Source: Escherichia coli
Lineage (GTDB): Bacteria; Pseudomonadota; Gammaproteobacteria; Enterobacterales; Enterobacteriaceae
Assembly (NCBI RefSeq): GCF_003334305.1
Contig: NZ_QOWS01000022.1
Strand: one strand, 5' to 3'
Length of the DNA: 64,000 nt
Numbering within the stretch: the first letter of the stretch is position 1; every line of letters starts with the position of its first letter. A program made the translations under genes and the position numbers. The notes under the pieces were generated by a model. The model worked only from the letters and a program-made list of their open reading frames with translations. It did not search any database and was not told the origin of the DNA. Shown piece by piece: positions 46,499-47,644 of the stretch.

Positions 46499-46771
46499 AT
46501 GGCACTCCCCCGTATTACCCAAAAAGAGATGACTGAACGCGAGCAGCGTGAACTTAAAACACTGCTGGATCGGGCGCGGATTGCGCATGGTCGCGTACTG
46601 ACCAACTCCGAAACCAACAGCATTAAGAAAGAGTACATCGATAAATTAATGGTCGAGCGTGAGGCTGAAGCGAAAAAAGCCCGCCAGTTGAAGAAAAAGC
46701 AGGCTTATAAACCGGATCCTGAAGCGTCATTTAGCTGGTCAGCAAATACGTCGACGCGCGGCAGGCGCTGA
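46499..46771 (+). CDS. yjbD: DUF3811-family small protein
   Basis: 90 aa basic protein MALPRITQKEMTEREQRELKTLLDRARIAHGRVL; convergent with rluF. Confidence 0.8.
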   Translation: MALPRITQKEMTEREQRELKTLLDRARIAHGRVLTNSETNSIKKEYIDKLMVEREAEAKKARQLKKKQAYKPDPEASFSWSANTSTRGRR

Positions 46772-47644
46772 TTAGCGCCCCTTCTTTTTACGCCCCGGAG
46801 AGGTAAAACGCTTACCGTTGGACGCCGGGCGACCGCCTTTTTCCGCCGTTTTTTCCATCTTAACGACTGGACGTTTGATGCCCGCTGTTTTCGGTTTGGC
46901 CTTCACTTTAGGTTTTGCCTCGGAAGAGGAATTTTCGATGAGCTTAAAGAGGTCGATTAACTCATCATCAGTTAAATCGCGCCACTCACCCAGCGGAATG
47001 CCGCTTAAGCTGACGTTCATAATGCGCGTACGTTCCAGCTTTTTCACTTCATAGCCGAAATGCTCGCACATGCGCCGGATCTGACGGTTCAGCCCCTGCA
47101 CCAGGGTAATGCGGAAGACAAACGGCGCTTCTTTTTTGACTTTGCACTTTTTCGTCACCGTCCCGAGGATCGGCACCCCCGCCCCCATACCACGAATAAA
47201 TTCATCGGTAATCGGTTTATCGACCGTCACCAGATACTCTTTCTCATGATCGTTACCCGCACGGAGGATCTTATTCACCAGATCGCCGTGATTGGTGAGG
47301 AAAATCAGCCCCTGGGAGTCTTTATCCAGGCGGCCAATCGGGAACACGCGTTTGCTGTGGTTAACGAAATCGACAATGTTATCGCGCTCGCCATCTTCGG
47401 TGGTGCTGACAATACCGACGGGCTTGTTCAGGGCGATAAGTACCAAATCTTCGGCTTCCCGAGGCTCAATCAACTGACCGTTTACTTTCACAATGTCGCC
47501 GGGTTTCACCTGATCGCCAATGGTGGCTCGCTTGCCATTAAGGAACACATTGCCTTGCTCGATATAGCGATCCGCTTCGCGGCGTGAGCAAATTCCGCTT
47601 TCGCTGATGTATTTATTTAAACGGACTGATGAGTCGGGCAGCAT
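46772..47644 (-). CDS. rluF: 23S rRNA pseudouridine synthase F
   Basis: 290 aa; S4 domain N-terminus, RsuA/RluF catalytic motif [10 protein letters not shown], Lys-rich C-terminal tail. Confidence 0.93.

Follow-up and report, generated by a model that had tools for sequence, protein, structure and literature searches.

The convergent genes yjbD and rluF, which lie in a 64-kb stretch of Escherichia coli DNA that was analyzed as a whole and is referred to here as the window, were found to end on directly adjacent bases within a single palindrome. The hairpin encoded by this palindrome is not a classical bidirectional terminator, because a U-rich tail follows it on the plus strand only, and it is at best a one-way signal for yjbD. 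We see about an even chance that the palindrome is mainly a by-product of coding and a weak, one-way look-alike of a yjbD terminator, and that Rho ends both transcripts; such a terminator would be leaky at best, since the hairpin is short, probably covered by the ribosome, polymorphic and dispensable in related genera. Overall, this is a real but ordinary junction, which provides at most a leaky, allele-dependent terminator for yjbD.

The anatomy of the junction, its conservation pattern and its polymorphism could be read directly from the sequences compared here. The yjbD coding sequence (CDS) occupies positions 46499-46771 of the plus strand and encodes a DUF3811 protein of 90 amino acids, as supported by the list of open reading frames (ORFs), the PGAP annotation and orthologues in 80 loci; its last codons, GGC AGG CGC TGA, spell Gly-Arg-Arg-stop in the ORF list and in PGAP. 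The rluF coding sequence, which encodes the 23S rRNA pseudouridine 2604 synthase of 290 amino acids, lies on the minus strand at positions 46772-47644 (ORF list, PGAP, tblastn), and the RluF C-terminus, Pro-Gly-Arg-Lys-Lys-Lys-Gly-Arg-stop, was matched by tblastn to the last residue in 78 loci. The RefSeq/PGAP annotation was taken from a strain that is 100% identical across positions 45900-48000, a region that shows 100% identity to several complete genomes. The TGA stop of yjbD (46769-46771, plus strand) directly abuts the TAA stop of rluF (46772-46774, minus strand; TTA on the plus strand), leaving 0 intergenic bases in the ORF list and in the annotation. This bears out the zero intergenic distance claimed in an earlier, sequence-only reading of the window, and the mis-assignment of stop codons that the same reading had named as a possible objection was not found: re-annotation and end-to-end protein homology in 78 other Enterobacteriaceae loci uphold both stops.

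Both stops are likewise located, as had been proposed, within one inverted repeat. The sequence at 46764-46779, GGCGCTGATTAGCGCC, forms an inverted repeat of 6 bp without mismatches around a loop of 4 nt, in which every base belongs to one of the two genes. The left arm GGCGCT (46764-46769) is composed of the last base of the yjbD codon AGG, the CGC codon and the T of the yjbD stop, which is the final base of this side of the stem. The loop GATT (46770-46773) contains the GA of the yjbD stop and the TT of the rluF stop, and the right arm AGCGCC (46774-46779), opened by the remaining A, is the antisense of the T of the rluF stop, the CGC codon and the final GG of a GGG codon. The repeat is followed on the plus strand by the T-rich run CCTTCTTTTT (46780-46789), which is the antisense of the first GGG base and then of the codons AAG, AAG and AAA, corresponding to Gly-Lys-Lys-Lys of RluF. 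In plus-strand RNA, the stem can be extended by pairing of GG (46760-46761) with CC (46780-46781) across a 2-nt bulge.

RNA folding predicted for the yjbD strand a hairpin of 6 bp with five G-C pairs (-10.3 kcal/mol), or of 8 bp when the bulged extension is included (-11.2 kcal/mol), and for the rluF strand a hairpin of 7 bp including one G-U pair (-11.7 kcal/mol). The yjbD-strand hairpin is a GC-rich stem-loop of the kind found in intrinsic terminators, at the weak end. The tail that follows it on the plus strand, CCUUCUUUUU, has five U among its first eight nucleotides and reads directly as UUCUUUUU if the two C's join the stem, and the site passes a lax hairpin-plus-T-run consensus, which itself occurs at chance frequency. 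In the rluF direction, GCCGCGCG comes after the hairpin; the rluF-strand RNA continues with GCCGCGCGUCG and is without a U-run, and the minus-strand RNA after the hairpin reads GCCGCGCGUCGACG, so the U-tail on both strands that characterizes a classical bidirectional terminator is absent. A consensus scan of positions 45800-48000, including ~970 nt downstream of rluF, found no terminator-like site on the minus strand. Of the shared bidirectional hairpin claimed by the sequence-only reading there remains the trivially true part, namely that both transcripts can fold a hairpin, but the U-rich tail is confined to the yjbD strand; similarly, the T-rich run that it described after the repeat is present at 46780-46789, but on the plus strand only. 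The locus has the layout of collision-type termination sites in that the two genes converge and a hairpin lies in the region common to both transcripts. No Rfam family was detected at the junction when positions 44000-49000 were scanned at E<=1; an RNase P match, with 17 bits against a gathering score of 100, was dismissed as a chance match.

The palindrome would mainly follow from the fact that the two ORFs each end with G-Arg(CGC)-stop on adjacent bases. The T-A pair of the stem is forced by any two abutting stops, and the terminal Arg codons of the two genes dictate the C-G and G-C pairs, leaving third codon positions as the only free positions of the stem. The RluF lysines encoded under the T-run are invariant in 76 species, with codons that switch between AAA and AAG. 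Since the YjbD tail (R-G-R-R) and the RluF tail (P-G-R-K-K-K-G-R) are essentially invariant in these 76 species while neighbouring codons drift synonymously, the T-richness would most simply be a by-product of the conserved basic tail of RluF. The codons GGC AGG CGC are retained by yjbD also in two loci where rluF is not the neighbour, which counts against a constraint at the nucleotide level.

To place the junction in its family context, 80 loci encoding YjbD were compared, in 78 of which rluF is the convergent neighbour. Judging by these loci, stop-to-stop contact is conserved across the Enterobacteriaceae and the hairpin is not. The gap between the two coding sequences is 0 in 32 species and in one locus identical to that of the window (L001), with representatives in Escherichia, Pseudocitrobacter, Enterobacter, Lelliottia, Leclercia, Trabulsiella and others. 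A further 44 species (44 of 79 loci) have a gap of -4; they are found in Salmonella, most Citrobacter, Klebsiella, Raoultella, Kluyvera, Kosakonia and Phytobacter, and here the stops interlock, typically as TTAA. The exceptions are single loci at +3, +12 and +192, the last of which has a truncated RluF match; convergent stops that abut or interlock are in this way conserved between orthologous loci. The TTAA-type 4-nt tail-to-tail overlap is exactly the form of the yjbD/rluF junction in Salmonella, Citrobacter, Klebsiella and Kluyvera, and the E. coli junction differs from it by 4 nt at the symmetry centre, where the abutting stops leave a 4-nt loop and a hairpin can form. In the -4 class a 4-bp remnant stem is left, with a median folding energy of -2.8 kcal/mol on the plus strand and -4.5 kcal/mol on the minus strand.

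Within the zero-gap class, the perfect stem is present in 20 of the 32 species, mainly on the side of Enterobacter, Lelliottia and Leclercia, and the Enterobacter-type sequence folds into a stem of ~10 bp (-12.5 kcal/mol, z = -2.8) that is followed by UUUUU. E. albertii, E. whittamii, the cryptic Escherichia clades and Pseudocitrobacter carry one or two mismatches on the plus strand, with folding energies from -0.5 to -5.7 kcal/mol. On a tree of the yjbD and rluF genes, the Fitch minimum is four state changes in total, about two of which are, on our reading of the tree, switches between gap 0 and gap -4. A recurrent indel hotspot was also considered and given up, as ~2 switches are no strong sign of it.

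Selection on base pairing was assessed in the 32 zero-gap sequences. On the plus strand, 90.6% of cells are paired compared to 89.4 +/- 0.7% in shuffled sequences, a value reached by 62 of 500 shuffles, and on the minus strand the respective values are 96.9% and 96.3%, with 155 of 500 shuffles reaching the observed value. A compensatory change was found at one pair only, from C-G to T-A in two sequences, and covariation was not significant on either strand across the 32 zero-gap species, which does not qualify the hairpin as a conserved structured RNA. Pairing is better on the rluF strand because the common variants, AGG to AGA in yjbD and CGC to CGT in rluF, still pair as G-U on this strand; the result would be expected under selection on the rluF RNA and equally under plain transition bias. 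The three four-fold degenerate third positions of the stem have entropies of 0.40, 0.45 and 0.76 bits, and all 11 neighbouring four-fold sites have higher values (0.84-1.73), which in a rank calculation uncorrected for phylogeny corresponds to a one-sided p of ~0.003. In addition, RluF uses the non-preferred Gly codon GGG in 30 of the 32 species. The low entropy of the stem positions and the GGG usage suggest some constraint at the nucleotide level, which would be plausible in the Enterobacter clade.

The motif by itself is within chance, and its placement is unusual. In the 2.2 kb between 45800 and 48000, the hairpin-plus-T-run consensus was found twice compared to 3.2 expected from shuffles; perfect 6-bp GC-rich stems number 27 in the window against 15.0 +/- 4.7 in shuffles. 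The folding z-scores of the region (-0.36 and +0.30 in a 141-nt context) give no indication of unusual stability. The centre of the palindrome falls exactly on the gene junction, and no other intact convergent pair in the 64-kb window lacks a spacer, the ten other convergent CDS pairs being separated by 34-338 bp. Seven of these other junctions, with spacers of 34-98 bp, were folded, and six of the seven contain dedicated hairpins of 8-12 bp, with energies of the junction segments between -18 and -44 kcal/mol (for example yjcB/ssb, uvrA/yjbR and xylE/psiE); the seventh, zur/yjbJ, is without a comparable stem. Among the GC-rich stems of the folded junctions, the yjbD/rluF hairpin is the shortest and the only one built from codons. 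With the classical bidirectional terminators yjcB/ssb and uvrA/yjbR of the same window it shares the single hairpin between two facing genes. However, those two sites have a spacer of their own (34-98 bp), stems of 9-10 bp, segments of about -18 to -42 kcal/mol and A/U runs on both sides, whereas yjbD/rluF has no spacer, a stem of 6-8 bp and a U-run on one side only.

The distribution of junction alleles within the species was determined by exact 30-mer searches in 5426 complete E. coli genomes. The perfect palindrome, which is the allele of the window and is also found in O157:H7, is present in 1464 genomes, and the ST131-type allele GGCGCTGATTAACGCC in 1344. The UTI89-type allele GACGCTGATTAACGCC, which has two mismatches and is also found in the type strain, accounts for 183 genomes. 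The largest group, with 1773 genomes, carries the 132-bp insertion in the loop that is typical of K-12; a loop AATC without insertion occurs once, and other 30-mers make up, by subtraction, about 660 genomes. Weakened stems are present in at least 1527 of the 5426 genomes. In the ST131-type allele the plus-strand hairpin is lost and the best fold is a different structure of -6.8 kcal/mol, and in the UTI89-type allele no hairpin is formed at the site. Since most E. coli genomes carry the site in a broken or interrupted form, an important role as a terminator in this species is unlikely. The sequence AATC flanks the K-12 insertion and is also found in some cryptic Escherichia lineages. It is the exact reverse complement of GATT, and an inversion of the loop was considered as its origin; this idea was dropped, since two point changes would leave the same sequence as an inversion and since AATT and GATC, which are viable intermediates, occur in other genera.

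In MG1655, where rluF ends at 4231226 and yjbD at 4231359, the loop of the palindrome contains 132 extra bases, the order being GGCGC-TAATC, the insert, and GGCGT-TAATC-AGCGCC. Positions 46-125, the core of the insert, belong to a dispersed repeat of which genomes carry a median of 14 copies at ~82-89% identity; the window contains no copy of the K-12 insertion. The right-hand hairpin and T-run retained in K-12 form a G-U variant stem of -7.9 kcal/mol with the repeat element just upstream. Published K-12 data place a dominant Term-seq 3' end at 4231270 (-) (Adams et al. 2021, PMC7815308), that is on the yjbD strand and 3 nt past a strong hairpin inside the insert. The same study reports two Rho termination regions, one antisense to yjbD at 4231569 (+), which scores 3.1 for Rho, and one antisense to rluF at 4231091 (-), which scores 4.3 (PMC7815308). 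Reads upstream and downstream are 88/26 in untreated cells and 100/93 with bicyclomycin for the former region, and 120/31 and 355/392, respectively, for the latter (PMC7815308), corresponding to downstream/upstream ratios with bicyclomycin of ~0.93 and ~1.10. The first region lies 343 nt downstream of the rluF-strand stem in K-12 (PMC7815308), and the K-12 data of PMC7815308 give no dominant 3' end at the site homologous to the palindrome and T-run. Since read density is about equal on both sides when Rho is inhibited, neither the palindrome halves nor the right-hand hairpin with its T-run stops much transcription in either direction in K-12, a statement that holds for 800-nt windows and for an allele different from that of the window. 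These are measurements of the K-12 allele in 800-nt windows and not of the window's allele, and we found no 3'-end data for a strain carrying the latter; a search for Term-seq tables of EHEC yielded nothing usable. The TERMITe supplements contain no row for yjbD or rluF, and a literature search returned no paper naming the two genes together.

In E. coli, when a tR2 terminator is located a few bp downstream of a stop codon, the ribosome that trails RNA polymerase covers the tR2 hairpin and represses termination almost completely (Li et al., PMC4824070; review PMC7858274). At yjbD/rluF, masking should be at its maximum, because the stop codon sits inside the hairpin, which, judged from PMC4824070, would not be free of the terminating ribosome. 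A ribosome arriving at the yjbD stop would cover the hairpin, as the 5' arm and the stop lie within the ORF, and termination would be limited to those transcripts on which RNA polymerase has run ahead of the ribosome. For both genes, most transcripts would continue into the partner gene as antisense RNA and would then be ended by Rho. For the window's allele we infer that termination is weak, that the ribosome masks the hairpin and that Rho is the main terminator. The stop-codon-proximal Rho-independent terminators of the tR2 series (PMC4824070) are similar to this site in that a GC-rich hairpin with a U-rich tail begins at or before the stop and that function should vary with the distance between ribosome and RNA polymerase; terminators at or near stop codons are common in B. 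subtilis according to the summary that PMC7858274 gives of Johnson et al. 2020. The yjbD/rluF hairpin differs from the tR2 type in that the coding sequence of one gene supplies its 5' arm and that of the opposite gene its 3' arm together with the U-tract, with a predicted stem of only 6-8 bp. Observations that speak against the by-product explanation are the perfect stem in 20 of 32 zero-gap species, the low entropy of the stem codons and the mismatch between the K-12 allele and that of the window.

The same observations are partly what would be expected of a genuine intrinsic terminator of yjbD, allele-dependent and gated by translation, a reading that we regard as possible but doubtful. With UUCUUUUU as its tail, the hairpin would set the yjbD 3' end ~15-20 nt into the rluF coding sequence, and the last five codons of RluF would double as 3' arm and U-tract. 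Apart from the perfect stem in 20 of the 32 zero-gap species and the reduced synonymous variation in the stem codons, this reading draws on the hairpin-plus-T-run consensus on the plus strand, on the GG/CC extension that makes the tail begin directly with the U-rich sequence, and on the z-score of -2.8 of the Enterobacter-type fold, and it is most credible in the Enterobacter clade. The stem is, however, short, its covariation is not significant, and the stop codon inside the hairpin leads one to expect masking by the ribosome. Moreover, 44 species and at least 28% of the E. coli genomes have lost the hairpin but kept both genes, and transcription passes the K-12 variant once Rho is inhibited.

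The remaining alternatives involve both transcripts. Collision-driven bidirectional termination at convergent E. coli gene pairs was reportedly described by Ju et al. in 2019. It has also been described by Wang et al., with ynaJ-uspE as the model site (bioRxiv 10.1101/2022.10.23.513370). Applied to yjbD and rluF, where it amounts to a present-day version of the shared hairpin proposed in the sequence-only reading, it would mean that the shared hairpin pauses RNA polymerases arriving from both sides and that head-on and trailing collisions terminate both genes, which we consider quite improbable. The locus resembles the class of Ju et al. and Wang et al. in being a convergent pair with overlapping 3' regions and a possible hairpin in both transcripts (-10.3 to -11.2 kcal/mol on the plus strand and -11.7 kcal/mol on the minus strand), and sites of the published class require a hairpin but can do without a canonical U-tract and without Rho (bioRxiv 10.1101/2022.10.23.513370). 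Yet sites of this class are reported to be Rho-independent with sharp 3' ends, whereas the data for the yjbD/rluF locus, obtained with the K-12 allele, show Rho-dependent regions on both strands, located well beyond the junction in both directions. Frequent transcription from both sides would also be required, ribosomes at either stop would cover the hairpin, and most genera that keep the junction have no hairpin. We see similarly little chance that the palindrome serves as a barrier to exonucleases (cf. Dar & Sorek), in which case Rho would end rluF transcription inside the antisense of yjbD and the RNA would be trimmed back to the stem-loop at the stop codon. As with 3' ends that a stem-loop protects in Rho-dependent transcripts, there is a stem-loop without a U-run on the rluF strand and, in K-12, Rho-dependent termination downstream of it, antisense to yjbD; pairing is also better kept on this strand (96.9% versus 90.6% of cells), but plain transition bias gives the same. 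The predicted stem contains the stop codon and is weaker than typical protective structures, being modest with 7 bp and -11.7 kcal/mol and reduced to 4 bp and -4.5 kcal/mol in the 44 species of the overlap class. The ratio of C over G downstream of rluF is only 1.1-1.6, which is uninformative as a rut signal and adds nothing in favour of the barrier.

In no respect does yjbD/rluF depart from features of known kinds; it adds one more terminator-like hairpin to those at convergent junctions, and its sole peculiarity is that the final codons of both genes make up all of it. We assign a very small probability to the more far-reaching claim that it is a terminator or pause site consisting wholly of coding sequence, with both stops in the loop, which folds only after the ribosome has left either stop. 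If this were true, the end of translation would be tied to the end of transcription at this locus, and the yjbD and rluF mRNAs would be obligate 3' antisense partners whose relative transcription sets their mutual read-through. The three E. coli alleles, which have a perfect stem, a synonymously broken stem or the 132-bp repeat in the loop, would then be natural variants of that control; they are ready-made and directly comparable in any case. No known phenotype or open question depends on the junction. It offers a clean natural case of how transcription is ended in E. coli where two convergent genes have no space between them for a terminator, and here the published data for K-12 point to the action of Rho within the partner gene. 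The natural allele series within E. coli and the repeat within the K-12 loop are minor curiosities of this locus.

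The palindrome that holds both stop codons of yjbD and rluF (GGCGCT-GATT-AGCGCC, window 46764-46779) is interrupted within its loop in K-12 MG1655 and in 1773 of the 5426 complete E. coli genomes by an insertion of 132 bp. In the K-12 locus (L082), this insertion occupies positions 2228-2359, corresponding to NC_000913.3 4231227-4231358, and its site is homologous to window 46769-46775. It is bordered by TAATC at either side as well as by palindrome-like half sites, and its core (positions 46-125 of the insertion) is a dispersed repeat, present at a median copy number of 14 per genome, that may resemble the 'Box C' repeat. 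K-12 Term-seq data place the dominant 3' end on the yjbD strand 3 nt past the hairpin of the 132-bp insertion.

The window loop GATT (46770-46773), where the stops are TGA for yjbD and TAA for rluF, is the exact reverse complement of AATC, with stops TAA and TGA, respectively. The latter loop adjoins the K-12 insertion and also occurs in cryptic lineages of Escherichia (compared at loci L003, L004, and L006). The difference could reflect a minute inversion of the hairpin loop that swapped the stop codons of the two genes, or just two point changes.

In 44 of the 79 Enterobacteriaceae loci (L011-L040 and others), for example in Salmonella enterica subsp. arizonae (L039, 2770-2773), the two stop codons are interlocked by a 4-nt overlap, which usually reads TTAA, but CTAA or TTAG in some loci. 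Where the stops are interlocked, the third base of the last Arg codon of each gene is set by the stop codon of the other.

Upstream of yjbD, three genes encoding a zeta-toxin family protein, a nucleotidyltransferase-domain protein, and a slipin/SPFH family protein are inserted between it and lysC (window 43083-45969), followed by 529 bp of non-coding DNA (45970-46498), while the K-12 equivalent comprises only 252 bp. Since window 45900-48000 is covered to at least 80% in only 1628 of 5426 E. coli genomes, the insert is suggested to be a variable island that possibly encodes a defence or toxin-antitoxin module. The non-coding stretch also holds, at the island edge, a second terminator-like site (46223-46235, plus strand), reading GGGGTTTGACCCC and then CTTTGTAATT.

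Apart from yjbD/rluF, a single convergent pair in the window lacks a spacer: as annotated in strain A28, a frameshifted ShET2/EspL2-family effector pseudogene (about 55512-57085, plus strand) faces aceK (about 57054-58790, minus strand) and runs 32 nt into the aceK 3' end. The identity of strain A28 to the window was verified over 45900-48000; its annotation also lists frameshifted DUF2713 and SopA-family genes (about 13806-14791 and 22829-24409, respectively).

Just past pepE, at window 48552-48619, the Rfam family naRNA4 matched below threshold (47.1 bits; gathering score 59.5), with further, weaker matches on both strands. The segment, which lies in the convergent pepE/yjbB spacer, is probably a palindromic element of the REP type.
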